Assembly: GCF_000012925.1 (NCBI RefSeq)
Contig: NC_007517.1
Coordinates: forward strand, 2,580,001-2,612,000
Source of the DNA: Geobacter metallireducens GS-15
GTDB lineage: Bacteria; Desulfobacterota; Desulfuromonadia; Geobacterales; Geobacteraceae
Length of the DNA stretch: 32,000 nucleotides
Direction of reading: 5' to 3'
The translations under genes were made by a program, and so were the position numbers. Of the stretch, positions 1 through 10,060 are shown one piece after another; positions within the stretch are counted from its first letter, which is position 1; each line of letters opens with the position of its first letter. A model generated the notes under the pieces. It saw only the letters and a list, made by a program, of their open reading frames with translations, had not been told where the DNA came from and searched no databases.

Positions 1-72
1 GCCAGCCAATTCCCGAAAGGAAAGCAGCACAGCCATGGGCAATTTCTTAAGCGCAATTTGCGCTAAAAGGGG

Positions 73-1260
73 TTGTTTATGGCTATTTTCACATCAGAGA
101 ACAATCAAGTAGTGTCCCCCAGCATGGCGGAGTCTGTAACACGCCATGCGCAAAACCCACCTACCGGAAATTTCCAGTTCCTTGCCTGCGGCATTGATAC
201 CCTTGATCTGGGTCTGTTCGTGTCGTGGGACGCCAACTGGAACCGCACCAAGTCGTATCTTTCCGAGAAGAAGGAAGCCTCCCAGGGAACAACCGGCCTT
301 CTCGACAAGACCGACATCAGCCGGGAGTTTCTCCACCACGCAAGCGGCAAGGCTCCCAACTATCGCTATCAGCTCCAGTTCCCAGAATACCGCGTCTATC
401 TCGCCATTTCCGACAAGCCCGGCGCCTCGCCGAACGTCTATGTAACGATCCTGGCGGAAGCCCTCTGGCATGTGGGCCTATCAACCCTCCTGGAGCTGTT
501 GGAGTTCGACCTTATGAGCTTCGGCGGCACTATCGAGCGTGTCCAGCCGAGCCGGTGCGACCTCTGCGCAGACTTCAGAGTGAATCCGCCCCTCGCCTTT
601 TCCCTTCTCGAAATCCTCCGGGTGTCCCGCAGTCGCAAGATCAGAATGATAACGAACGGCGGCGACCTGGAAACCTACTATTGCGGCTCTGCTAACTCTC
701 CCGTCCAGGTGCGAATCTACGACAAGGGGAAAGAGATTCAGAAGAGCAACAAGCAATGGTTTCTGCCGATCTGGGGTGTGGATGATCCGGGAGGGGTCTG
801 GCGGGTCGAGTTCCAGCTTCGCCGCTCATTTCTCCATCAGTACCGGATAAAGACCCTTGACGACCTCTGGGAGAAGGTCGGCGCAATCTGGGCGTATCTC
901 ACAGGGGAATGGTTCTCGCTCCGGCTCCCCGACAACGAGAAGGCGGAACGGCGCACCATTCATCCCTGGTGGCTGGCGGTGCAGGAATGCCGGGACCGGT
1001 TCGGGGCCTTTCGGGATGCCAAGAGGACATTTTCCAGCGACAGCATGGAGCCGATTCAACGCACCCTTGCCCACATTATGGGAAGGATGATCTCCATTGC
1101 CGCCCAAAGCGGAATCAAGGACCGCAAGGAGGCGATCCGGTATCTGGGCCAGCTCCTTGACGAGCGCACCGATGATGACAAGTTCCGGGAGGAATACCGC
1201 AAGCGGTTAATCAGGCTCGGCTATCGCGGCACCCTGGGAGGGTCGGACGATGAGGAATGA
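73..1260 (+). CDS. Replication-initiation-factor-like protein (rolling-circle Rep_trans / phage gene II-like family)
   Basis: 395-aa ORF with motifs recalled from Rep_trans-type initiators: RCDLCADFRV (R-x-D-l-a-x-D-f), VQVRIYDKGKEIQ (YDK-x-x-E) and VWRVEFQLRR (R-v-E-l-q-l-R). The track start is TTG at 73; ATG at 79 is an alternative. Confidence 0.5.
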   Translation: MFMAIFTSENNQVVSPSMAESVTRHAQNPPTGNFQFLACGIDTLDLGLFVSWDANWNRTKSYLSEKKEASQGTTGLLDKTDISREFLHHASGKAPNYRYQLQFPEYRVYLAISDKPGASPNVYVTILAEALWHVGLSTLLELLEFDLMSFGGTIERVQPSRCDLCADFRVNPPLAFSLLEILRVSRSRKIRMITNGGDLETYYCGSANSPVQVRIYDKGKEIQKSNKQWFLPIWGVDDPGGVWRVEFQLRRSFLHQYRIKTLDDLWEKVGAIWAYLTGEWFSLRLPDNEKAERRTIHPWWLAVQECRDRFGAFRDAKRTFSSDSMEPIQRTLAHIMGRMISIAAQSGIKDRKEAIRYLGQLLDERTDDDKFREEYRKRLIRLGYRGTLGGSDDEE

Positions 1261-1591
1261 TAACCTTCCACCCTCCCCTGACCTTCTCACCGTGGAGCAG
1301 TTCGCCGAACGGATGCAGGTGTCCCGCACCACCATCTTTGGTTGGATCAAGGCGGGTGCCCTCAAGGAAAGGGTCCACTATATCCGACTCGGCCGCATCT
1401 TGCGCTTTCGCTGGGGGGTTGACCTTTTCTTCAACCGCCCGACACTGGCGAACAACGCGGAGGATGCCCCGGAAACGCCACCGCAGGCCACGGTCGGCAC
1501 GCTGGATTCTCAGCGGGGCGAAGCCCCGGTCAACCGCCCGCCTTTGACTTTAGAACGCCACAAGGGGCCGGTCATGAACCTTGACTATTGA
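1250..1591 (+). CDS. Excisionase-family / AlpA-like helix-turn-helix DNA-binding protein
   Basis: LLTVEQFAERMQVSRTTIFGWIKAGAL...RLGRILRFRW matches the HTH_17/excisionase pattern (HTH followed by an R-x-x-R-F/W wing). The ATG overlaps the 3' end of the Rep-like gene, and the gene sits directly upstream of an integrase. Confidence 0.65.
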   Translation: MRNDNLPPSPDLLTVEQFAERMQVSRTTIFGWIKAGALKERVHYIRLGRILRFRWGVDLFFNRPTLANNAEDAPETPPQATVGTLDSQRGEAPVNRPPLTLERHKGPVMNLDY

Positions 1592-1669
1592 TAATGCGAT
1601 GAAAGGCCGCTATGCTCCCCTCGGACTTAAGACGCACTGAAGGGAGGGTAACGGCCATGAGGTGACACA

Positions 1670-2980
1670 ATGAGAATGAAGAAAGGCATGCTTGCCTTGG
1701 AAGAACCAGTAAAGCAAATCGGAGCCATCAAGCGGCGCAAGGAGTCGAAGAAGCTCTACGTGGATTTCTACTACTTCGGGCGCAGGATAACGAGAAGCAC
1801 GGAACTGAACGACACCCCGGCCAATGAACGAAAGGTCCGGGCCTTTCTCGACAAGGTGATGCAGCGGATCGAGGACGGGACGTTCAAGTTTGCGGAGGCG
1901 TTCCTAGGAGCCACGGAGGAAGAGAAGGAGTTCTTCACCCAACTGGAAGGAAGGGAGTACCGGCCGGAACCACATCAGGTGGTTTTCGGAGAGTATGTGA
2001 AGGAGTGGATGGCGACGATCTTCCCCACCTTCGGCTCACCGACCAAGCGGCGGGACTATCGGGAGGCAATCGAAACGAGAATCCTTCCGGCCTTTCGGAA
2101 CATGACGTTCCACCAGATAACCGGGATGGCGGTATTCCGGTTCACGGAGTCGCTGGTCTGGAAAAAGGGCATCCACAAGGGAAAGCCCCTCTCCACGGCC
2201 AGGAAGAGCAACATCCTGATTCCGTTTCGCTCCATCTGGAACGATGCCTGCGACCATTACCGCTGGGTTATCAAGAGTCCCTTCGATAACCTGAGAAAGC
2301 GGCTTCCCAAGACCGAGAAGAAGGAACACACCGTTATCCGCTTCGCCGACTGGCTCACGTTCCTTGACAATCTGGAAGTGCATTACCGCCCCATCGCGGA
2401 ACTGATGATCCTTACCGGGATGATCCCTTCGGAGTTGGGGGGACTACGGAAGGACGATATCGAGGGGAATTACCTCAACGTCCGCAACTCCTACGTCCTC
2501 GGCGTGGAGAAGAAGAGCCTCAAGACCGCTTTCCGCAAGAGGCAAATCTCCATCACGGAAGCCATCAGGAAGCGGCTACAAGAACTTCAGAACCGCCCCG
2601 GCTCTCCTTACCTCTGCACGATGGTTGACGGCTCACGGTTCAACAGTAGCCGGTTCTGCAAGGTCTGGAAGAAGGCGGTGGATCAGGCCGGGATTCCCTA
2701 CGTTACCTCCTACTCGGCCCGGCACTCTTTCGCGGCGTGGAGTCTCATTATCGGGGTGAATCCGTTACGGCTCGTCAAGCTCATGGGGCATGCCAGCAAG
2801 CAAATGGTCTATGAGGTCTACGGGAACTACGTGGAGGGATTGGAAGAGGACGCGGAAAACATCTTCCGCTACTTCGGCAGGGACTTCATTATCCCCGGAA
2901 AAAGCAAATCCCCGATACCGTTTAGAGACAGTACCGGGGACAGTTTCGCGAACAACCTCTTAACTTTCGGAGATTGTTAG
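1670..2980 (+). CDS. Tyrosine recombinase / phage-type integrase of element A
   Basis: C-terminal catalytic signature ARHSFAAWSLIIGVNPLRLVKLMGHASKQMVYEVYGNY (R...H-x-x-R...H...Y). N-terminal arm-binding-like region LYVDFYYFGRRI. Adjacent to the tRNA-derived att repeat. Confidence 0.85.
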   Translation: MRMKKGMLALEEPVKQIGAIKRRKESKKLYVDFYYFGRRITRSTELNDTPANERKVRAFLDKVMQRIEDGTFKFAEAFLGATEEEKEFFTQLEGREYRPEPHQVVFGEYVKEWMATIFPTFGSPTKRRDYREAIETRILPAFRNMTFHQITGMAVFRFTESLVWKKGIHKGKPLSTARKSNILIPFRSIWNDACDHYRWVIKSPFDNLRKRLPKTEKKEHTVIRFADWLTFLDNLEVHYRPIAELMILTGMIPSELGGLRKDDIEGNYLNVRNSYVLGVEKKSLKTAFRKRQISITEAIRKRLQELQNRPGSPYLCTMVDGSRFNSSRFCKVWKKAVDQAGIPYVTSYSARHSFAAWSLIIGVNPLRLVKLMGHASKQMVYEVYGNYVEGLEEDAENIFRYFGRDFIIPGKSKSPIPFRDSTGDSFANNLLTFGDC

Positions 2981-2987
2981 ATTTTTT

Positions 2988-3034
2988 TGGAGCGGGAAAC
3001 GGGATTCGAACCCGCGACCTTCAGCTTGGGAAGC
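2988..3034 (-). repeat. 47-nt remnant of the tRNA-Gly(CCC) 3' end (att core repeat shared by elements A and B)
   Basis: tggagcgggaaacgggattCgaacccgcgaccttcagcttgggaagc matches 9986-10032 at 46 of 47 positions (C at 3007, T at 10005). Similarity stops abruptly at 3035, inside the anticodon stem. Confidence 0.9.
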
Positions 3035-3100
3035 AGGACACAAATCTTTCACGCCCCCACAACCCGCTCTATCACCATCTCGTTTATAGTCCATAACTTG

Positions 3101-3129
3101 TTGACTTATATCTGATTTTCCCATAGAGT
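3101..3129 (+). promoter_or_regulatory. Putative sigma70 promoter of the element-B integrase
   Basis: TTGACT (3101-3106), 17-nt spacer, TAGAGT (3124-3129), about 90 nt upstream of the int ATG. The putative arm-type repeats lie between this promoter and the start codon. Confidence 0.4.
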
Positions 3130-3175
3130 TATCCAAGCCAAGCCTCGCTTCATACGCTTTACTGCAAGCCCACTA

Positions 3176-3200
3176 GAGGTTGCTTGCAGGTTGCTTGTAG
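3176..3200 (+). repeat. Tandem GGTTGCTTG(C/T) motifs (putative integrase arm-type binding sites, left end of element B)
   Basis: gaGGTTGCTTGCaGGTTGCTTGTag. An almost identical 26-nt block occurs at 9904-9929 in the same orientation. Confidence 0.55.
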
Positions 3201-3216
3201 CACTCAGAGGGAAATC

Positions 3217-4461
3217 ATGTCAACGCAATTCTCAGACAAGTTCATTCAAAACCTGAAGCCTGAAGCCAAGAAGTATTACATCCGGGAGAGTCGAGGATTC
3301 GCCATAGTCGTCCACCCTTCCGGTATCAAGAACCCGAAAGGGACAAAGACTTTCCTTTACATCTACACCATCAACGGCAAGCGCAAGGAGTTGAAGCTAG
3401 GGAATTACCCAGAGGTAACGCTCAAGGATGCTCGCATCAAGCACGGCGAAGCCTATGCACGTTTGGTTAATGGAGAAGACCCAGTCACCCCTCCAGTCAT
3501 TAAAGCTGAGCCGCAAGACGAAAACCTCACCTTCGGTCACTTCACAGAGTTATACCTCCAATGGTCAAAAGATAATCATTCGCCCAAGTGGCACAACACT
3601 ATCAAGTGCGCCCTGAATAAAGATGCACTTCCTGTCTGGGAATATACACTCATAGCTTCCATCAAGCGTCGTGACGCTATAGCCTTTCTTGAAAACGTAG
3701 CAAGGCGGGGTATCCAAGTAATCAACTTACACAAGGCGACCAGCTCAGTCTTTGACTATGCTTTAGAGCGTGAATACATCGAATCAAACCCGATGGCAGG
3801 ATTAAAAGCAAAGACTATCCCGGCCCTTAAACCAAAAGCGAGAGAGCGCTTTCTCTCAGACAGTGAGATAAAACACGTCTGGAAGGCCATAGACGAGGGG
3901 CCGGGTTATGATGAAACCAAGCGTGCCTTGAAACTCATAATGGTAACAGCACAGCGACCGGGGGAGGTTGCAGCAATGCACAGGCGGGAGATTCAAACAG
4001 GCGTCGGTAAACCACGTTGCAAGATATGCAAGCGGTGCGGGTGGTGGACTATTCCGGCAGAAAGGATGAAGAACGGAGAGGAGCACAGGATATACCTTAC
4101 CCCTACAGCCCTCGAACTGATCGGAGATGCAGAGGGGTATATCTTTCCGTCACCACAGGACGGGCAACCTATAAACAGAAACTCCCTTTCCCAGCTTGTC
4201 AGTAGAGAGAGAAACAACAAGAAGCCCAATGGGGAGATGTACCCACCGTATTATGGATTGCCTGAGTGGACGCCTCACGATCTGAGACGCACGGCCCGGA
4301 CCCTTCTGGCTCGTGTTGGCGTACCGGAGGAGCACGCAGAGGAAGTGCTCAGTCACAAGAAAGAGGGCTTAGTGGACAGGTACAACCGCCATGACTACAT
4401 GGAGGAGAAGAAGGAGGCCTTGATTAAACTGGAAGCTGAGTTGATGAAATTGAGCATATAA
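3217..4461 (+). CDS. P4-type (DUF4102 N-terminus) tyrosine integrase of element B
   Basis: N-terminus FSDKFIQNLKPEAKKYYIRESRGFAIVVHPSG...LKLGNYPEVTLKDAR is the typical P4-like arm-binding domain. Catalytic residues: TAQRPGEV (R), HDLRRTART (H-x-x-R) and DRYNRHDY (Y). Start moved to ATG 3217 (GAGGG 6 nt upstream) from the TTG at 3184. Contains a Cys-rich insert, CKICKRCGWW. Confidence 0.9.
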   Translation: MSTQFSDKFIQNLKPEAKKYYIRESRGFAIVVHPSGIKNPKGTKTFLYIYTINGKRKELKLGNYPEVTLKDARIKHGEAYARLVNGEDPVTPPVIKAEPQDENLTFGHFTELYLQWSKDNHSPKWHNTIKCALNKDALPVWEYTLIASIKRRDAIAFLENVARRGIQVINLHKATSSVFDYALEREYIESNPMAGLKAKTIPALKPKARERFLSDSEIKHVWKAIDEGPGYDETKRALKLIMVTAQRPGEVAAMHRREIQTGVGKPRCKICKRCGWWTIPAERMKNGEEHRIYLTPTALELIGDAEGYIFPSPQDGQPINRNSLSQLVSRERNNKKPNGEMYPPYYGLPEWTPHDLRRTARTLLARVGVPEEHAEEVLSHKKEGLVDRYNRHDYMEEKKEALIKLEAELMKLSI

Positions 4462-4496
4462 GCAATGAAATTGCATTGAAAGTGAGGATGATGCCG

Positions 4497-4934
4497 ATGA
4501 GAGCTAAGTCGATATTGTTATTTATGGTGATTGCTTTGTATCCAACGTTTGTTGCAGCACTCGATAGTGAAGAAAAATATACTGGGTTTCATATTGACGT
4601 TTACGATGAGGCACTAACAAACAAAGTCATAGCTAATGCGGCTAAATGCGAAGTTATAGATCAATTACTTAACGGTGAAAGAAAGTCTTGTTATCTGTCA
4701 AACGCTATACATAAGATTATTAGTGAGCCTGACAACAAGTTAGTGAGGTATATGCCATTAAGAAATAATTACAATCGGTTGTTTATAGAATATGAAGTTG
4801 CCTATCACGCTTTAAGGAATGCACAATTCGGAGCACTTAAAACCATGAAAACGCTCAATGCTATTAGTGTGAGTGGCCTTCTTGAAATGTATTCTAAATC
4901 AAATTGCCCTGAGCTTAACAAATCACAGGATTGA
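4497..4934 (+). CDS. Small secreted hypothetical protein (AT-rich, foreign-looking gene)
   Basis: MRAKSILLFMVIALYPTFVAA|LDSEE looks like a Sec signal peptide. GAGGA lies 8 nt upstream of ATG 4497 (the track ORF starts at TTG 4476). Codon usage is clearly AT-biased compared with its neighbours. I recognise no domain. Confidence 0.6.
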   Translation: MRAKSILLFMVIALYPTFVAALDSEEKYTGFHIDVYDEALTNKVIANAAKCEVIDQLLNGERKSCYLSNAIHKIISEPDNKLVRYMPLRNNYNRLFIEYEVAYHALRNAQFGALKTMKTLNAISVSGLLEMYSKSNCPELNKSQD

Positions 4935-5067
4935 CAAATAACCCTGTCTCGTCTTCTGATGCTATATCCCCACCCCTTCATCTCCCGATGAAGACTGTAG
5001 CGTCCAGTACATACAGTAGCGATCTTATCGCTCTTCTAAAGGGCTGGTAATCGAAGTAATTCTTGGC

Positions 5068-5096
5068 TTGACAGGCCTGATTTGTAAGTGTATAAA
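5068..5096 (+). promoter_or_regulatory. Near-consensus sigma70 promoter of the serine recombinase gene
   Basis: TTGACA (5068-5073), 17-nt spacer, TATAAA (5091-5096). GGAGGG RBS at 5125-5130 and ATG at 5138. Confidence 0.55.
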
Positions 5097-5137
5097 TTCA
5101 TCAACGACCATATTGAAATTACACGGAGGGCCAGACA

Positions 5138-5788
5138 ATGAAACGCTACGTGTCCTATCTCAGGGTATCAACCGACAAGCAAGGCCGGGAGGGCTACGGA
5201 GTAGGTGCACAACGAGAGGCCGTAGCCAACTACCTGAACGGGGGCAAGTGGGAGTTACTACGGGAGTTCGTAGAGGTGGAATCAGGAAGGAAGAAGGACC
5301 GCCCGGAGCTGGCAGCGGCTCTTTCCTTCTGCAAGCTGACTAAGTCCACCTTGATCGTTGCCAAGCTGGACCGCCTAGCCCGCAACGTGGCGTTTGTATC
5401 TTCGCTCATGGAATCTGGGGTTGACTTCGTAGCGGTAGACTTCCCAGAAGCAAACAAGCTGACTGTCCATATCCTTGCAGCGGTTGCGGAACATGAGGCC
5501 GGTATGATTTCCACCCGCACCAAAGCAGCCTTAGCGGCAGCAAGGACAAGGGGCGTCAAGCTGGGGAATCCTAACCTAACCAATGAAGCCCGGAGCGCTG
5601 GCAGGGTTGCAAGGGCTATGAAGTCCGATGAAGATGCAAAGAGGGTAAAACCCATCATTGAAGGATTGAGACTGCAAGGCATGGGACTTAGAGAGACTGC
5701 AAGGGAACTGAACCGGCAAGGAATCCGAACGCCACTAGGAAAGGACTGGACCGCTACGGCAGTCAAGAACGCAATGGCGAGATGGTGA
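5138..5788 (+). CDS. Small serine recombinase (resolvase/invertase family)
   Basis: N-terminal catalytic motif YVSYLRVSTDKQ (nucleophilic Ser), KLDRLARN and ISTRTKAAL motifs, and a C-terminal HTH-like region (GLRETARELNRQGIRT). Confidence 0.9.
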   Translation: MKRYVSYLRVSTDKQGREGYGVGAQREAVANYLNGGKWELLREFVEVESGRKKDRPELAAALSFCKLTKSTLIVAKLDRLARNVAFVSSLMESGVDFVAVDFPEANKLTVHILAAVAEHEAGMISTRTKAALAAARTRGVKLGNPNLTNEARSAGRVARAMKSDEDAKRVKPIIEGLRLQGMGLRETARELNRQGIRTPLGKDWTATAVKNAMARW

Positions 5789-5886
5789 AGCTCTGAGGCG
5801 TCAAGGTTGACAGGTGGTTTCCCTTCTCCTTCCTGTCCCTGACAGGCCTAGCGCCTCGCCCGGCCCGCTCCCTGATCGCCACGGAG

Positions 5887-5903
5887 CCCCCCCCCCCCCC
5901 CCC
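5887..5903. repeat. Homopolymeric C17 tract (G17 on the minus strand)
   Basis: Counted directly: 17 consecutive C, followed by a-cccc-at-ggggg (palindrome ccccatgggg). Intergenic, about 100 nt after the recombinase stop. Confidence 0.95.
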
Positions 5904-6121
5904 ACCCCATGGGGGAAAGCGCACGACGAGGGCGAGGGCAGACCCCTTGCACGCACCGGCTGTAATTTCGAGAATCTGAGTGCAGCCGACTCAGCCCGTC
6001 AAGCTATTTGCCCGCCCGCTGGACCTCTTCCCGAATAACAACCCACGCCTAGCCCTCACCCGGAATAAAAGCTCGTCACAGGTCAAATATGGTAGCTGTA
6101 TCCGTTTACCTATATGGCAAA

Positions 6122-6151
6122 TTGAACTAGAGCACCGCTCCGTGCTATAAA
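6122..6151 (+). promoter_or_regulatory. Putative sigma70 promoter of the 3-TM/zinc-ribbon gene
   Basis: TTGAAC (6122-6127), 18-nt spacer, TATAAA (6146-6151). It overlaps the track's GTG start (6152), which argues for the ATG at 6179 preceded by AAGGA. Confidence 0.45.
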
Positions 6152-6178
6152 GTGGAGGCAAGCAGAAAGGACCCGAAG

Positions 6179-6736
6179 ATGACAGAGTCTCAATCCCATT
6201 CAGTTCGTAACGGAGTTATTGCAACTGTCTTAGGTGGACTTATCTTGTCTGCAATACCCTATGCACGTGGTTTACTACTAAGCCTCATCGCATGGGTTTG
6301 GTCTGGGGCTGTTTGGGCACGGAAAACCATCACCTTGTCATATCCGACACCGGGGTGGTTACTGCTACTCATAGGGCTGTTCGCACTTTATGGCGCAGTA
6401 TGCACCCTCTTTGCACTCCGGCCCAAGAAAGAACCCCTCCACAAGAAGTACACTGAAGATATTATTTACGGTGCAAAGTGGCGCTGGTCTTGGGTGGGAA
6501 GTAATGTTTCAAATCTTTGGTGCTATTGCCCGACGTGTGATGCAACTCTTGTTTATGATGACAGCTCTTGTCGCTCCCGGTATGAACCAAGCAAAACCGA
6601 CTTTATCTGTGAGCGGTGCAATGGAAAGGTTGTTACAACAATCCAAGGTGGAAACAAATCATACGCTGTCGGTGCTGCCGAAAGGGAACTTCTCCGCAAG
6701 GTGAGGACCGGGGAGTATGTCGCTGCTATCCAATGA
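6179..6736 (+). CDS. Membrane protein with about 3 N-terminal TM helices and a C-terminal CxxC...CxxC zinc-ribbon-like domain; function unknown
   Basis: Hydrophobic stretches VIATVLGGLILSAIPY, LLLSLIAWVWSGAVWA and GWLLLLIGLFALYGAVCTLFAL. Then CYCPTCDATLVYDD...DFICERCNG (two CxxC pairs). Confidence 0.65.
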   Translation: MTESQSHSVRNGVIATVLGGLILSAIPYARGLLLSLIAWVWSGAVWARKTITLSYPTPGWLLLLIGLFALYGAVCTLFALRPKKEPLHKKYTEDIIYGAKWRWSWVGSNVSNLWCYCPTCDATLVYDDSSCRSRYEPSKTDFICERCNGKVVTTIQGGNKSYAVGAAERELLRKVRTGEYVAAIQ

Positions 6737-6947
6737 CTGAAGAAAAGAGCCTCGCCCGCAATTCAAGCAATCGAAATTGGGACAAGGTGGCCGTAACACG
6801 GGAGCGGCCCAAGGGAGCACCGTAGATCACTGAGAGAGAACACAGACTGCTCGCACCTCGGCTACTGGCTCAACCTTGGGCAATCAAACGGGCTACTATG
6901 TAACCGGCCTCAGCCGGATAGATATAAATAACCGTATGTAAGACAAG

Positions 6948-7427
6948 TCAGTCTGATAAGTTGTACCAGTCAGGGAAGCGGTCACTCTTTATGCGCCACG
7001 CCACGGTGGATTGAGAGAGACCAGCAGCTTTTGCAGCTTCTCTTTGATGAGTGAAGACACCGATAGGCGTGCTAATCTTGGAGCCACGAGTAGGCTTTTT
7101 CGACCCGGTTGCATAAGCACGCTTCATACAGCGAGAGCGACAGCTCCACTCAAGATTGCTTGCGTTGTTGTTGCTACGATTCCCATCTTTGTGCCTTACA
7201 CAAGGAAGCTCGTCGGGATTGTCAATGAAGGCCTCAGCTACAACCCTATGCCACAAGAGCGCCTTGGGTTTCTTGCTCTCTCCAACGTACAAATTTGCAA
7301 TGCACCCTTTCTTTGAAACTGAAGGGCTCAATACGTGCCTTGTCTTTATCCGTCGAATATCCCCGTTATTTGAGACTTCGTACTCACGCGCCTCCCGTAC
7401 CACTTTCCATCGTTCGCTCTCGGTCAT
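6948..7427 (-). CDS. Free-standing HNH homing-type endonuclease (NUMOD4-like N-terminus, HNH core, C-terminal HTH)
   Basis: WKVV...YEVSNNGDIRRI (NUMOD4-like), CVRHKDGNRSNNNASNLEW (H-N-N core) and REAAKAAGLSQSTVAWRIK (HTH). A G9 run sits in the SD position upstream. Confidence 0.8.
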   Translation of the reverse strand: MTESERWKVVREAREYEVSNNGDIRRIKTRHVLSPSVSKKGCIANLYVGESKKPKALLWHRVVAEAFIDNPDELPCVRHKDGNRSNNNASNLEWSCRSRCMKRAYATGSKKPTRGSKISTPIGVFTHQREAAKAAGLSQSTVAWRIKSDRFPDWYNLSD

Positions 7428-7433
7428 ACCCAG

Positions 7434-7442
7434 CCCCCCCCC
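7434..7442. repeat. C9 tract (G9 on the coding strand), 6-15 nt upstream of the HNH start codon
   Basis: Counted directly. On the minus strand it reads gcGGGGGGGGGctgggtATG. Confidence 0.9.
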
Positions 7443-7534
7443 GCTCTTGTAGCACTCTAGCCCGTTTTTTATCTCTCTTATAATTCTTTACTCTTCGTCT
7501 ACTACTTAGCGCTCCGTCTTCGACGGTACTACTT

Positions 7535-7668
7535 GTTCGCTCAGAGGTTCCTGTATCTATAGGACGGGTTTATTTTACGATGAGAAATGAGAAATGAAAC
7601 CATCGGGACTCTGTCACGCATCGGAACGGCTGGTTCGCTCAGAGGTTCCTGTATCTATAGGACGGGTT
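7535..7668. repeat. Pair of identical 36-bp direct repeats separated by 62 bp
   Basis: gttcgctcagaggttcctgtatctataggacgggtt at 7535-7570 and 7633-7668. The spacer contains the tandem gagaaatgagaaatga. Confidence 0.9.
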
Positions 7669-7872
7669 AATTCATCTTAACGGAGAGCACTTGCACGCGC
7701 CGGTTGCAATCCCAAGGGTGAGAGCCCAACTCTCAGACCGTCCTTTTAACGCACCCCGCCGCCCACTGGCTCGCCCGCAACTTGTCACCCCTCACCTTAC
7801 CCTTCGCCAGCCCGTGCCCGCCCTCAGAAACGATAATAATTTGAAACCGCCGTGCGAGACCGGGAGTGCGCT

Positions 7873-7949
7873 ATATTATTAATAGTATGGGTTAATTGCT
7901 TGCCCGCACGCCATATTATTAATAGTATGGATTAATTGCTTGCCCGCAC
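7873..7949. repeat. Two tandem 37-bp repeats (40-bp period, 1 mismatch), each containing AATTGCTTGC
   Basis: atattattaatagtatggGttaattgcttgcccgcac at 7873-7909 and atattattaatagtatggAttaattgcttgcccgcac at 7913-7949. Confidence 0.9.
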
Positions 7950-8101
7950 TACAGATGCCCCTGAGTGCGTCAGATATTGCGCCAGAAAGGCTTCGAGTAC
8001 TCCGGGCAGGGCATACCATTGCCCGACACCGCCCAACCCGCCAGAGGGCTATATTTTTTAAGTTGTGCCGGTGCAATGAATTGAGAGTACGCAAAAGAAA
8101 A

Positions 8102-9427
8102 GGTTCTTCAGGGAATTCCGGGGAAGATTAATAAACAACAACGGCAGCACTGCGGTATCTTGATGGTTCCCCAACCAAAAAAGATCGCAGGAGGCTGCCG
8201 TTGTCGTATTCCGATGTTATCGCAATTGCGGGAGGGTGGGAAGGATATCGTGTTGCTGGGACACGCACTATCGTCACAGGTGATGCCAAACGGATCGAGG
8301 TAGAACTGATTGCCCTGTCCCAGGATGAGATGGTGTGTGGCTCGTGCGGCGGGCGTTGCACAAGCGTCCATGAAACGACCAAGCGCGTAATTCGAGATTT
8401 GCCGATTCTCGATGCTCAGACTTATCTGATCGTTCACCGCCGCAGGCTGCTGTGCCCTCAGTGTGGGCCAACGCTGGAGCGTCTGTCATGGCTGGCGAAA
8501 TACGCCCGCGTGACGCGCAGGCTTGCAGAGAGCGTAGCGCGACTGTGTGGTGTCGTGTCTGTGAAGCACGTGGCGCAGTATCTGGGGCTTTCTTGGGACC
8601 AGGTGAAGGAAATCGACAAGCGCTCACTCACAGAGCGGGTCGGCACCGTCGACCTCTCAAACATCGAAGTTCTCGGGATGGATGAGTTCGCCCTTCACAA
8701 GGGGCACCGCTATGCGACGGTTATCATCGAGCCATACCGTAAGGAAGTCTTATGGATCGGCAAAGGCAGGAGTCGCGAGAGTATCCGTCCTTTCTTCACG
8801 CAGCTTGGCCCACATGGCTGTAAACGGCTCAAAGCGGTCGTGATGGATATGAACGCATCATATGAGGAGGAAATCAAGCAGCACTCGCCCCAGGCAGACA
8901 TAGTCTACGACCTGTTCCATGTGGTGGCGAAGTATGGCAGGGAAGTGATCGACAGGGTGCGAGTCGATGAGGCAAACCGCCTGAAGGAAGACAAGAAGGC
9001 ACGGAAGGTAGTCAAAACATCGCGGTGGTTGCTGCTACGAAACAGCGAGAACGTCAAGGGCGACGACATGCTTCGCCTCCAGGAACTGTTGGAGGCAAAC
9101 CGCAGCCTCCTTACGGTCTACCTGCTCAAAGACGATCTGAAGCAACTGTGGAAGTTTACCTGCATTGAAGAGGCGGGACTATTCTGGGAGCAGTGGCACC
9201 AAAGGGCGATGGAGAGTGGAATACCGCCACTCATCCTGTTTGCCCGCCGGCTAAAGGGCTATCTCCAAGGAATCCTCAACCACTGCCTCTGGCCCCTTCA
9301 CACCGGAATCCTCGAAGGCATCAATAACAAGATCAAGGTGATCAAAAGAATGGCCTACGGCTTCCGGGATCACGAATACTTCTTTCTCAAGATCAGAGCC
9401 GCTTTCCCCGGAATTCCCGGATGAACC
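8102..9427 (+). mobile_element. ISL3-family insertion sequence (1326 bp) with imperfect terminal inverted repeats and an 8-bp target-site duplication
   Basis: IRL is GGTTCTTCAGGGAATTCCGGGGAA (from 8102). The reverse complement of IRR is GGTTCATCCGGGAATTCCGGGGAA (ending at 9427). It is flanked by identical AAAGAAAA at 8094-8101 and 9428-9435. It has a single transposase ORF. Confidence 0.9.
8201..9424 (+). CDS. ISL3-family DDE transposase
   Basis: N-terminal zinc finger CGSCGG...CPQCG (zf-ISL3 type), about 400 aa, stop codon inside the right IR. TTG start preceded by AGGAGG 6 nt upstream. Confidence 0.85.
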   Translation: MSYSDVIAIAGGWEGYRVAGTRTIVTGDAKRIEVELIALSQDEMVCGSCGGRCTSVHETTKRVIRDLPILDAQTYLIVHRRRLLCPQCGPTLERLSWLAKYARVTRRLAESVARLCGVVSVKHVAQYLGLSWDQVKEIDKRSLTERVGTVDLSNIEVLGMDEFALHKGHRYATVIIEPYRKEVLWIGKGRSRESIRPFFTQLGPHGCKRLKAVVMDMNASYEEEIKQHSPQADIVYDLFHVVAKYGREVIDRVRVDEANRLKEDKKARKVVKTSRWLLLRNSENVKGDDMLRLQELLEANRSLLTVYLLKDDLKQLWKFTCIEEAGLFWEQWHQRAMESGIPPLILFARRLKGYLQGILNHCLWPLHTGILEGINNKIKVIKRMAYGFRDHEYFFLKIRAAFPGIPG

Positions 9428-9460
9428 AAAGAAAAGCCCCGAACCATTGAAGGCCGGGGC
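9428..9460 (-). terminator. Rho-independent terminator of the small-ORF operon; its T-tract was the ISL3 target
   Basis: The minus strand reads GCCCCG-(13-nt loop)-CGGGGC followed by TTTTCTTT. The TTTTCTTT is the complement of the AAAGAAAA target duplication. Confidence 0.6.
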
Positions 9461-9492
9461 GTGATAGCCTGATTGCAGGTTACAGGTGGGAA

Positions 9493-9630
9493 CTAAGGTG
9501 CAAGGCGCTTCAGGCGTTCCAGCGCCTCCACGTTGATACCGATTTTAGCTTGTGCCTCCCTGAGCGTTATTGCCTTCCTGCTGTGAACGAGGGTCAGGTG
9601 CTTTCTTGTGATTGCGTTCTTGATCGTCAT
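9493..9630 (-). CDS. Hypothetical 45-aa protein, possibly a minimal HTH (regulator or excisionase candidate)
   Basis: ATG 9630 is preceded by GAGG. ITLREAQAKIGINVEALERLKRL resembles helix 2, turn and helix 3 of XRE-type HTHs. It is followed by a terminator. The call is weak because the ORF is very short. Confidence 0.35.
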   Translation of the reverse strand: MTIKNAITRKHLTLVHSRKAITLREAQAKIGINVEALERLKRLAP

Positions 9631-9637
9631 ACGCGCC

Positions 9638-9784
9638 TCAATCCGGGAGGGTGGCAGAGTATTCATCTTGAGCATTGAAGCACTCTTCCTGCCTGTCGCA
9701 AGCTAGGCACTTCCTGAAGGTCGCCATGTGCTGTTTCTCCCATGATTTGAAGTCGGTATTCATCTGGTCAATCTCTGCTTGCAT
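9638..9784 (-). CDS. Hypothetical 48-aa protein (contains CLAC...C)
   Basis: ATG 9784 is preceded by a strong GAGGAGG 5 nt upstream. Its stop lies 10 nt before the next small ORF. No recognisable domain. Confidence 0.4.
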   Translation of the reverse strand: MQAEIDQMNTDFKSWEKQHMATFRKCLACDRQEECFNAQDEYSATLPD

Positions 9785-9888
9785 CTTCTCCTCCTCATCG
9801 TTAAGGGCTATCGACAATCGGCGGACAGGAGCGAACCGGATGCAGGAGGGGCACGGGATAATCGAAAACAGACAGATGCAGACAGGCG

Positions 9889-9927
9889 GGTTGCTTGCCA
9901 ACGGAGGTTGCTTGCGGGGTTGCTTGT
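9889..9927 (+). repeat. Three GGTTGCTTG(C/T) motifs (putative integrase arm-type sites, right end of element B)
   Basis: GGTTGCTTGC at 9889-9898 and 9906-9915, GGTTGCTTGT at 9918-9927. They lie about 60-100 nt from the tRNA 3' end, in the same orientation as the copies at 3178-3198. Confidence 0.55.
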
Positions 9928-9985
9928 AGATTCTGGAAAGAGAAAAAGGGGCTGCCAAAAACTGGCTAACCCCTTGATTTCTTTA

Positions 9986-10060
<75 letters not shown>

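Follow-up and report, generated by a model that had tools for sequence, protein, structure and literature searches.

The window analysed here, a stretch of 32,000 nucleotides from the genome of Geobacter metallireducens GS-15, holds a complete, small chromosomal island that is bounded by a repeat of the 3' half of tRNA-Gly (2984-3034 and 9982-10032; 51 nt, 96% identity) and carries an integrase gene (3184-4461). No phage structural or replication genes were identified among the island proteins with Pfam and PHROGs, no terminase or capsid genes with PHROGs and no primase or replication protein, of the kind that makes up the replication module of a satellite, with Pfam, PHROGs and PADLOC. A Rep_trans gene at 73-1260 belongs to a neighbouring island. 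The region under study, hereafter referred to as the block, lies where the initial annotation of this DNA had placed it, between the start of a minus-strand HNH endonuclease gene (7427) and an insertion sequence. The features of the block and its surroundings are as follows:

6948-7427, minus strand: gene for an I-HmuI-like HNH homing-type endonuclease of 159 aa (Pfam NUMOD4, HNH_3, I-TevI_DNA-bd)
7514-7526, minus strand: leader hairpin CCGUC-GAA-GACGG, with a purine-rich tract between it and the start codon at 7427
7552-7574, minus strand: Pb, predicted consensus T7-type promoter, AATAAACCCGTCCTATAGATACA, with the predicted +1 at G 7557
7650-7672, minus strand: Pa, predicted consensus T7-type promoter, AATTAACCCGTCCTATAGATACA, with the predicted +1 at G 7655
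7673-7874, minus strand: G-rich core, flanked by the variant promoters on one side and the consensus promoters on the other
7875-7897, minus strand: Pd, variant promoter-like copy, AATTAACCCATACTATTAATAAT, within the second 40-nt tandem repeat
7915-7937, minus strand: Pc, variant promoter-like copy, AATTAATCCATACTATTAATAAT, within the first 40-nt tandem repeat
7940-8093, minus strand: segment U, a conserved non-coding segment of ~150 nt between the terminator and the first promoter copies
8102-9427, plus strand: ISL3-family insertion sequence, transposase at 8201-9424 (DDE_Tnp_ISL3, 2e-69)
9436-9460, minus strand: intrinsic terminator hairpin (GCCCCG..CGGGGC) and then minus-strand TTTTCTTT, read directly from the sequence

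The 36-mer GTTCGCTCAGAGGTTCCTGTATCTATAGGACGGGTT occurs in two exact copies (7535-7570 and 7633-7668), precisely as first described, with no match in shuffles of the window; together with their flanks the copies measure 51 nt each (90% identity) and lie 98 nt apart from start to start. The AT-rich tandem pair reported earlier is also real, with a unit of 40 nt (7869-7908 and 7909-7948; 95% identity), but carries two mismatches instead of one. The description of the two repeat families as unrelated does not hold, since one motif of ~21 nt, AATTAACCCGTCCTATAGATA, is present in all four copies on the minus strand, in the sense orientation of the HNH gene. Its consensus is AATTAAyCC(g/a)TnCTAT(a/t)(g/a)ATA and the minus-strand sites are 7672-7652, 7574-7554, 7897-7877 and 7937-7917. 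The suggestions that the exact duplication marks a functional cis element and that the HNH strand is the relevant one were both borne out. The 36-mer is unrelated to the tRNA-Gly repeat, and an origin as a tRNA-derived attachment repeat was accordingly rejected.

No ORF in the block exceeds 71 aa or has a Pfam match, in agreement with the earlier statement that none is credible. A related island, L007, has a block that is 89% identical over its whole length, upstream of a 96%-identical HNH gene, while the integrases of the two islands are only 36% identical. The two blocks differ by 11 indels (lengths 1, 1, 1, 4, 1, 1, 1, 1, 1, 1 and 2), none of which is a multiple of three, and the block is therefore considered non-coding. 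Decay of a former coding region, which had been named beforehand as the outcome that would speak against a function, is excluded by these non-triplet indels and the lack of protein matches. The whole block found no match in the phage and plasmid collections by BLASTN, and an exact 28-mer from the 36-bp repeat was absent from the viral and genome collections. Recurrence beside related HNH genes, for which a BLASTN-type check had been proposed, was observed in L007 and in a further island, L009, in which the HNH gene is 71% identical and the motif copies and the leader are kept.

The ISL3 element has 24-nt inverted repeats at 8102-8125 and 9404-9427 and an 8-bp target duplication, AAAGAAAA, at 8094-8101 and 9428-9435. 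It is an outsider to the island element, having landed in the T-tract of the terminator at the upstream edge of the block, and its empty insertion site is visible in L007, where the T-tract that is split here has the unbroken form CGGGGCTTTTCTTTTGCGT. The terminator, which is 88% identical to L007:1886-1936 and 84% to L009:1645-1695, closes the minus-strand genes upstream of it, ORF106 (9638-9958) and ORF60 (9493-9675). Segment U is 80% identical to L007 and ~75% to L009:1686-1845, and in L009 it again follows a terminator and precedes the motif copies. The G-rich core is the best-conserved part of the block (94.9% identity to L007) and includes a G-quadruplex-type motif on the minus strand (7788-7823), in accordance with the G-runs noted earlier at about 7740-7830. 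It is absent from L009, where its slot between the motif copies is occupied by 5 kb of cargo (ORF164, HamA and a helicase).

The module recurs in related tRNA-integrated islands and begins with the terminator and the ~150-nt segment; two variant promoters then precede the G-rich core, and two consensus promoters precede the leader and the I-HmuI-like HNH gene. It is kept in at least four island lineages, in which the integrases diverge to 36% identity and the cargo differs. All the motif copies in the window, L007, L009, L040 and L043 are oriented toward the genes that follow them, and these are not always HNH genes: the motif precedes ORF56 and an AlpA-family gene (PF05930, 7e-11) in a Geobacter MAG, Hachiman genes in L009 and a 597-aa ORF in L040, where two copies lie ~120 nt from a serine recombinase gene.

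T7-group promoters span ~23 bp, with an AT-rich part at -17 to -13, a specificity region at -12 to -8, TATA at -4 to -1 and G at +1. The motif was compared with the T3, T7 and SP6 promoter strings as printed in PMC5324670. Positions -17 to -9 of the T3 promoter equal the AATTAACCC of the motif, positions -5 to +1 of the T7 and SP6 promoters equal its CTATAG, and it has G at +1 with an SP6-like GA start. The motif shares with the class II and III promoters of T7, T3, SP6 and K11 the ~23-bp unit and the AT-rich -17 to -13 part (AATTA), but all four differ from it at -8 to -6, where the motif has GTC, which points to a polymerase of different specificity. They also differ in location, the classical promoters being situated in phages and the window copies in a bacterial chromosomal island. 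Read against the printed strings, Pa and Pb have the complete layout of a T7-group promoter and Pc and Pd only its upstream half. Since the latter two lack the TATAG initiation core, they are possibly inactive. The repeat at 7633-7668 corresponds to positions -13 to +23 of Pa and that at 7535-7570 to the same positions of Pb. Pa and Pb lie 228 and 130 nt, respectively, upstream of the HNH start codon, and the HNH gene is the first ORF downstream of both. Sigma-70-like sites were not found in 6800-8400 by a crude consensus scan, which may miss the promoters of this organism.

A matrix was built from 12 phage copies of the motif, with no window sites included. It scores Pa at 33.2, Pb at 30.0, Pd at 21.5 and Pc at 16.1 bits, with the next-best window site at 12.5 and the phages' own copies at 29.9-41.2 bits. 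In 300 dinucleotide shuffles the best site per shuffle averaged 5.7 bits and reached 19.5 at most, so that Pd lies above the best shuffle and Pc below it. With an independent matrix from Vibrio phage D529, three of the four sites are the best three in the window, Pd being the third, and the fourth ranks fifth.

The motif-bearing phages compared are contigs from metagenomes together with D529, which infects Vibrio. In the phage L019, ATTTAACCCGTCCTATAGATA lies between the scaffold and the major capsid genes, 31 nt before the ATG of a capsid protein that is 58% identical to Molineuxvirinae capsids, and Pa matches this promoter at 20 of 21 positions. The Pb variant AATAAACCC is also present in a phage (L028:3498), and Pc resembles the phage variant AATTAACCCTTACTATCAACA, which at L041:6290 precedes an early phage ORF by 20 nt. 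Ga0209518_1000799, a 38.8-kb metagenomic phage contig that also encodes a T7-type DNA polymerase, portal, tail fibre and terminase, carries at least seven copies of TTAACCCGGACTATAG, all intergenic and on the plus strand. Four to five copies are present on its sister contig Ga0209518_1002909 (L027), where a T7-type RNA polymerase is represented by its N-terminal 287 aa (E = 1e-79 and 41.6% identity to the enzyme of phage PP1). D529, in which an RNA polymerase is annotated, has 13 co-oriented copies of AATTAACCTAACCTATAGATA at gene boundaries, including one before the capsid gene, and provides an example of a polymerase-encoding phage genome with many co-oriented intergenic copies of the motif. 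Among the variants, the GTCC form of the window matches that of phage L019, and the GGAC form of L040 matches that of the Ga0209518 phage.

This dispersed, co-oriented and intergenic distribution in T7/SP6-like phages indicates promoter behaviour and not a binding site for an island protein. The earlier proposals of iterons or of recombinase or nuclease targets are disfavoured by it, as is the broader possibility that an island protein (the tyrosine integrase, the 216-aa serine recombinase or the HNH protein) binds the repeats or uses them for crossover, with the repeats acting as iterons or as recombination sites that delimit a cargo slot. The 5 kb of cargo between the motif copies of L009, as against the G-rich core alone in the window, and the proximity of two L040 copies to a serine recombinase gene would suit such a role, and I-TevI-type enzymes can bind operator-like sites. 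However, the phages with the motif at their gene boundaries lack these recombinases, all the copies are direct and co-oriented with genes, and a separate set of repeats, GGTTGCTTG, adjoins the attachment site and appears to fit integrase arm sites better than the motif of the 36-bp repeat does. A role as island-protein sites is hence considered very improbable. A cos/pac-like packaging region, also proposed earlier, found no support, the similarity between block and phages being confined to the 21-28 nt of the promoter.

The possibility that the block is a structured ncRNA, a riboregulator or a two-repeat CRISPR-like mini-array was also assessed. The 36-nt repeat length, the purine- and G-rich sense strand and the leader hairpin, which is identical in the window, L007, L009 (two copies) and L014 (two copies; HNH only 51% identical), could all be cited in its favour. 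The same applies to segment U, where RNAalifold on only three sequences gave 42 pairs, of which two are changed on both sides and several are G-U pairs that can form on the minus strand only; it may thus form a long RNA hairpin on that strand, with n = 3 making this a weak indication. In contrast, Rfam 15 yielded only tRNA-Gly at gathering score in the whole window, and the best sub-threshold match in 6700-8400 (E up to 10) was BjrC68, with 19.4 bits against a gathering score of 39 and E = 0.046 on the other strand. The RNA fold of the G-rich core is no better than that of shuffles (z = +0.48), and the 5-bp leader hairpin shows no covariation as its pairs never vary. A CRISPR array needs at least three regular repeats with spacers of ~30-40 nt and was rejected, there being here two copies, a 62-nt spacer and no cas genes or domains in the window. 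With the repeat fully explained as promoter positions -13 to +23, an RNA or CRISPR-like identity is extremely improbable. Of the checks proposed for a structured ncRNA, Rfam gave no usable match and covariation only the hints in segment U. A scan of IMG/VR with an 18-nt sequence of the leader hairpin gave three matches without any other similarity, which were attributed to chance.

The explanation that best accommodates these data, to which a probability of roughly 0.6 is assigned, is that the block is a transcription-control region with four co-oriented putative promoters for the single-subunit RNA polymerase of a T7/SP6-like phage (Autographiviridae). It draws on the identity of the motif with phage promoters and on its orientation, on a module that recurs, and on a nuclease whose catalytic motif is intact. 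The upstream intrinsic terminator would insulate the region from host transcription, and the module would be silent in an uninfected cell. A cognate phage, on infection, would make its polymerase, which would initiate at the G of CTATAG; transcription from Pc and Pd would cover the G-rich core, and that from Pa and Pb the leader and the HNH gene. With the HNH gene transcribed by the polymerase of the infecting phage, the nuclease would be made only in infected cells and is therefore probably switched on only upon infection by a T7/SP6-like phage, where it would most plausibly nick or cut phage DNA, resulting in interference or homing. The promoter model covers the repeats; the G-rich core and segment U fall outside it.

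The HNH protein aligns with I-HmuI (PDB 1U3E, E = 7e-10) over the HKDGN..NN...NL.W motif (vrHKDGNrsNNnasNLeW in the alignment), so that the H-x-D-G-N...N-N...N-L-x-W residues are all present and the catalytic motif is intact. Other matches are PADLOC HEase (5.5e-18) and PHROG 59 (9e-36). Its domain set and catalytic motif are common to I-HmuI and the free-standing NUMOD4-HNH endonucleases of phages, from which it differs by its location on a chromosomal island and by an I-TevI-type C-terminal DNA-binding domain. Distant homologues (P0020 and P0023) occur in unrelated siphovirus-like phages and are uninformative on the block.

Three HNH genes of the motif-carrying Ga0209518 contig encode proteins 34-37% identical to that of the island, and in D529 one motif copy (5864) lies 47 nt before an HNH gene (5911). 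As promoter-plus-HNH cassettes are common in T7-like phages such as D529, the arrangement was possibly inherited from a phage and not selected in the island. The module might be a relic or a selfish passenger. It would then be what remains of the left end of a temperate T7-like prophage, with an integrase and next to it an early region containing phage promoters, or else a phage-derived, free-standing homing cassette of promoter and HNH gene, and the promoters would serve only the spread of the endonuclease gene itself, or nothing. The presence of several HNH genes in T7-like phages, some directly behind a phage promoter, is consistent with this, as is the order of integrase, small ORF and then promoters in L007, L009 and L043, which an integrated T7-like genome would show at its left end; temperate features are known among T7-like phages (LUZ100, PMC10134795). 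Nevertheless, the window island is complete between its tRNA-Gly repeats and has no phage structural or replication gene, its integrase has no homologue in the phage stretches compared, and the island-phage homology flanking the HNH gene amounts to only 28 nt, too little for homing. The retention of the module across at least four lineages despite divergent integrases and cargo, and the use of the motif before AlpA, Hachiman and the 597-aa ORF, also argue against a passenger, an origin that is regarded as unlikely, if worth keeping in view.

The primary origin of T7 comprises the tandem promoters phi1.1A and phi1.1B and an AT-rich region, and transcripts of the polymerase prime DNA synthesis there. 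The block resembles it in sequence arrangement alone: Pa and Pb are in tandem at a distance of under 100 nt, and downstream of them lies a stretch rich in A+T and purines, which here forms the 5' leader of a gene. A region of this type, used for helper-dependent replication or mobilisation and with R-loops formed by G-rich Pc/Pd transcripts, could coexist with phage-polymerase control of the nuclease. Tandem copies lie 98 nt apart in the window (Pa and Pb), 84 nt apart directly after the RNA polymerase gene in D529, which is the position of the T7 origin, and 116 nt apart in the Ga0209518 phage. The tract at 7470-7509 has 70% A+T against 49% for the whole block, the non-template strand downstream of Pc and Pd is rich in G-runs with the G-quadruplex-type motif, and a further sequence of the islands, element X, also occurs in a non-coding phage region. 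T7 reportedly replicates and packages plasmids that carry its origin and the concatemer junction (Chung and Hinkle 1990). Against this, the island has no replication, packaging or capsid genes and the block no phage-end sequence, the AT-rich tract is short and at the same time forms the HNH leader, and the exact 28-mer of the island is absent from the viral-contig collection. A replication function is, on balance, distinctly unlikely.

T7-type promoters are textbook elements of phage genomes. Here, promoters of consensus grade are maintained in a family of bacterial islands, behind a terminator and before a nuclease or, in relatives, an AlpA-type regulator or Hachiman. This suggests an infection-sensing logic in which the essential and highly specific phage polymerase itself turns on genes of a host island. 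A wider proposal, put forward tentatively and unlikely to hold in full, is that the tRNA-integrated mini-islands of Geobacter-like bacteria form a new parasite or defence class directed against T7/SP6-like phages, with the phage polymerase as both sensor and engine. The polymerase would transcribe the nuclease, AlpA/excision genes and defence cargo from copied promoters and would prime replication of the island, for which the tandem promoters and the G-rich region prone to R-loops would be the sites; element X, in this view shared with the non-coding terminal region of the phage, would possibly enable packaging or recombination. If true, the sensing arrangement would be the equivalent in bacteria of the promoter mimicry of virophages, would indicate an island or satellite family tied to Autographiviridae, the first of its kind, and would allow uncultured T7-like phages to be paired directly with their hosts by the matching of promoter variants. 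No precedent for T7-type promoters in islands or satellites was found in the literature searched.

Among known systems, phage satellites (PICI, P4, PLE and PICMI) share with the island a small size, tRNA integration and an integrase. A phage-related nuclease and defence cargo are likewise found in the island relatives, one of which has an AlpA gene behind the motif, and activation by a specific infecting phage is predicted for the island as well. PLE, for instance, has genes for the nuclease NixI (PMC9410903) and for CapR (PMC8096241), a regulator derived from an endonuclease, and neither T7-like helpers nor phage promoters are mentioned in the paper on PICMI. Unlike satellites, the island lacks a primase or replication protein as well as any gene for packaging or capsid redirection; moreover, satellites are induced by an antirepressor or activator protein, whereas the signal here would be the helper polymerase reading copied promoters. 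The genes of mavirus carry the late-promoter motif of the giant virus CroV, and the late promoters of P4 are activated by P2. In both cases an integrated element stays silent until a virus supplies the machinery that reads its copied promoters, as is proposed for the present island. Virophages, however, have eukaryotic hosts and the P4/P2 pair relies on an activator, while the trigger here would be the single-subunit polymerase of a bacterial podophage.

The region between the HNH endonuclease gene and the ISL3 element (7428-8101) is non-coding, as the initial annotation had proposed: its ORFs are of 71 aa or less and have no Pfam match, and all 11 of the indels separating it from its counterpart in the related island contig L007 are non-triplet. 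The 36-bp and the AT-rich repeat pairs were recovered at the positions earlier reported and are far beyond chance. Their description as two unrelated families, however, was wrong, since both carry one motif on the minus strand. On this strand the 36-bp repeats start with (G/A)AAT(T/A)AACCCGTCCTATAGATACAGG (copies Pa and Pb) and the 40-bp AT-rich repeats include AATTAA(C/T)CCATACTATTAATA (copies Pc and Pd), giving four direct copies of one motif, each aimed at the HNH gene. Judged by its sequence, the motif is built like a promoter of the T7 group: its AATTAACCC equals positions -17 to -9 of the T3 promoter, its CTATAG equals positions -5 to +1 of the T7 and SP6 promoters and its GA start is like that of SP6 (standard promoter strings confirmed in PMC5324670).

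As a test of the promoter reading, phage sequences were searched for the motif. Among the viral contigs scanned, L019 contains ATTTAACCCGTCCTATAGATA, which agrees with the window motif at 20 of 21 positions. This copy falls in the gap between the genes for the scaffold and the major capsid protein, 31 nt ahead of the capsid ATG, which has an AAGGAG ribosome-binding site; the T7 promoter phi10 occupies the same position. The L019 capsid shares 58% identity with those of the Molineuxvirinae (Autographiviridae) and 81% with that of a related 38.8-kb contig (IMGVR_3300025030_000256, equivalent to Ga0209518_1000799), which encodes a T7-type DNA polymerase, exonuclease, ligase, portal, tail fibre and terminase. 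At least seven copies of TTAACCCGGACTATAG occur in this contig. All of them are intergenic and on the coding strand, at distances of 20-150 nt from the ORF that follows; the capsid gene has one of them 79 nt upstream. A 15.3-kb sister contig, with 4-5 copies, breaks off within a T7-type RNA polymerase gene after its first 287 codons; the encoded part is 41.6% identical to the enzyme of Pectobacterium phage PP1 (E = 1e-79). The annotated genome of Vibrio phage D529, which has four HNH genes and a gene for an RNA polymerase, contains AATTAACCTAACCTATAGATA in 13 co-oriented copies at gene boundaries; one of them stands 47 nt ahead of an HNH gene, and another precedes the capsid gene.

Two D529 copies (11995 and 12079) stand in tandem, 84 nt apart, directly after the RNA polymerase gene, in the same position as the primary origin of T7 and with a spacing resembling the 98 nt between Pa and Pb. 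By analogy with T7, the tandem promoters of the block might act as a replication origin, an alternative compatible with their use as promoters of the nuclease gene.

The sites were scored with a phage-only matrix of 12 phage copies (control, 300 dinucleotide shuffles of the window) and with a D529 matrix (control, 200 mononucleotide shuffles of the window).

Table. Scores of the motif copies in bits (phage-only matrix; D529 matrix)
Pa (7672): 33.2; 22.8
Pb (7574): 30.0; 19.5
Pd (7897): 21.5; 13.9
Pc (7937): 16.1; 8.7
Weak site in the neighbouring island, next-best outside the block (1573-1595, plus strand): 12.5; 11.1
Phages' own copies: 29.9-41.2; 32.6-42.8
Best score in window shuffles: mean 5.7, maximum 19.5; mean 6.0, maximum 19.0

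Pa and Pb are thus judged to be genuine representatives of the phage promoter family, and Pc and Pd to be variants that keep the polymerase-binding half and lack the TATAG initiation core; a phage variant resembling the latter, AATTAACCCTTACTATCAACA, lies 20 nt before an early ORF. The weak site (CATGAACCTTGACTATTGATAAT), between the excisionase-like gene and the integrase of the neighbouring island, scores within the shuffle range and may be a chance match.

The genes and elements around the block are as follows.

73-1260, Rep_trans-like gene of the left neighbouring element
1250-1591, HTH_17 excisionase-like gene of the same element
1670-2980, second integrase, of the same element
3184-4461, tyrosine integrase of the island, followed by ORF152
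5138-5788, serine recombinase (216 aa) of the island, followed by ORF194
6948-7427, minus strand, HNH endonuclease (NUMOD4, HNH_3 and I-TevI DNA-binding domains)
7428-8101, block in question, between the HNH gene and the ISL3 element
8102-9427, ISL3 element with 24-nt inverted repeats
9493-9958, minus strand, two small ORFs
9986-10060, minus strand, tRNA-Gly(ccc) gene

The 3' half of the tRNA-Gly gene is repeated at 2984-3034 (51 nt, 96% identity) and thus bounds an island of about 7 kb (3035-9981); a related genome (GCA_018531165.1) has an island-free locus with the same flanking genes, after the CCA-adding enzyme gene. A second integrative element occupies 1-3034, and since its integrase abuts the partial tRNA copy, two islands stand in tandem at one tRNA. 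Just within the tRNA-side island end (about 9888-9929), GGTTGCTTG occurs in three direct copies, probably the arm-type integrase binding sites of attP; a similar stretch is found on the integrase side in the island contig L013.

The ISL3 copy, a recent insertion, has a perfect 8-bp target duplication (AAAGAAAA) and interrupts the T-tract of a minus-strand terminator, which is unbroken in L007 (CGGGGCTTTTCTTTTGCGT). Before the insertion, therefore, the minus strand ran from the small ORFs through the terminator and the 670-nt block to the HNH gene. Several public assemblies of this locus end at this ISL3 or within the 36-bp repeat.

The only close homologues found for the HNH protein (96%, 78%, 71% and 51% identity) are on small contigs, and several of these encode an integrase as well. 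L007 has the whole block at 89% identity, the 96%-identical HNH gene behind it and the same terminator upstream. Along the minus strand, identity to L007 is 80% in segment U (7940-8093), 88% in Pc/Pd, 95% in the G-rich core, 92% from Pa to Pb and 94% in the leader. On a model built from three sequences, segment U might fold as one long hairpin, in which the divergence of the window is absorbed by G-U pairs valid on the minus strand only. The G-rich core has a G-quadruplex-type motif, but thermodynamically nothing indicates a specific fold; the leader has a hairpin, CCGUC-GAA-GACGG, that does not vary even in relatives whose HNH is 51% identical, and the tract after it is rich in purines. No sigma-70-type promoter was predicted in 6800-8400.

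The tyrosine integrases of the window and L007 are only 36% identical, so the block and HNH gene represent a module exchanged between island backbones; the serine recombinase, 98.6% identical (L007:6247-6897), points to a recent exchange. L009 (HNH 71%) retains the terminator, with segment U and copies of the motif behind it. Next come 5 kb of cargo, comprising ORF164, HamA with a DEAD-box helicase (Hachiman; L009:1852-7131, between motif copies) and ORF158, and after the cargo further copies of the motif, ahead of the leader and the HNH gene; this cargo slot is the place of the G-rich core in the window. L040 has two motif copies ahead of a 597-aa ORF; adjacent to them are genes for an integrase and for a serine recombinase with 54% identity, as well as GmrSD-like and HEPN-like genes. 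In L043 (Geobacter sp. MAG, JACOUQ010000029.1), which runs integrase, ORF115, motif, ORF56 and AlpA-family gene (PF05930), a consensus-grade copy lies about 35 nt upstream of the 56-aa ORF (L043:409-805), suggesting excision control driven by a phage polymerase. The island promoters differ at positions -7 and -6, each variant matching different phages: GTCC in the window and L019, GGAC in L040 and the Ga0209518 phage, and GCCC in L009 and phages L031 and L039.

A further GC-rich, non-coding element (..GTGCGTGCAAG..GCCCGCCCGC..GCGCTTTCCCCCGT..) is found in the islands beside the gene of the serine recombinase and where cargo begins or ends (window 5859-6096; L007:3338-3481 and 8332-8491; L009:6809-6930). 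About 75 nt of it also occur in an ORF-poor, GC-rich region of a T7-like phage contig (L029:9590-9660 and L036:3357-3430), about 1.4 kb beyond the last right-end promoter. As an element common to island and phage, it could serve recombination or packaging.

When the HNH protein is aligned to I-HmuI (PDB 1U3E, E = 7e-10), its catalytic HKDGN..NN...NL.W proves intact. The protein matches PADLOC homing-endonuclease models and PHROG 59, and three HNH genes of the motif-bearing phage share 34-37% identity with it. In the main rival explanation, the module would be no more than a passenger of phage origin: the left end of a prophage, or a cassette of promoter plus endonuclease. The block repeats are, by sequence identity, phage-polymerase promoter sequences; they face an intact nuclease gene and sit behind a terminator, in an arrangement conserved and modular across a family of integrative islands. 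In the reading preferred here, the module would be silent without a cognate T7/SP6-like phage, and the polymerase of an infecting phage would lead to production of the nuclease, which would then act on phage DNA; in the relatives, the products would instead be those of AlpA or defence genes.

Full-text literature searches found no report of T7-type promoters in chromosomal islands or satellites. Promoter mimicry by virophages is one close concept. Others are the nucleases encoded by the satellite PLE (PMC9410903) and its endonuclease-derived regulators (PMC8096241), and the PICMIs, described (PMC10803314) without a T7-like helper or a phage promoter. As promoters, the motif copies are ordinary representatives of a known class; what is new is their maintained use in a bacterial island.
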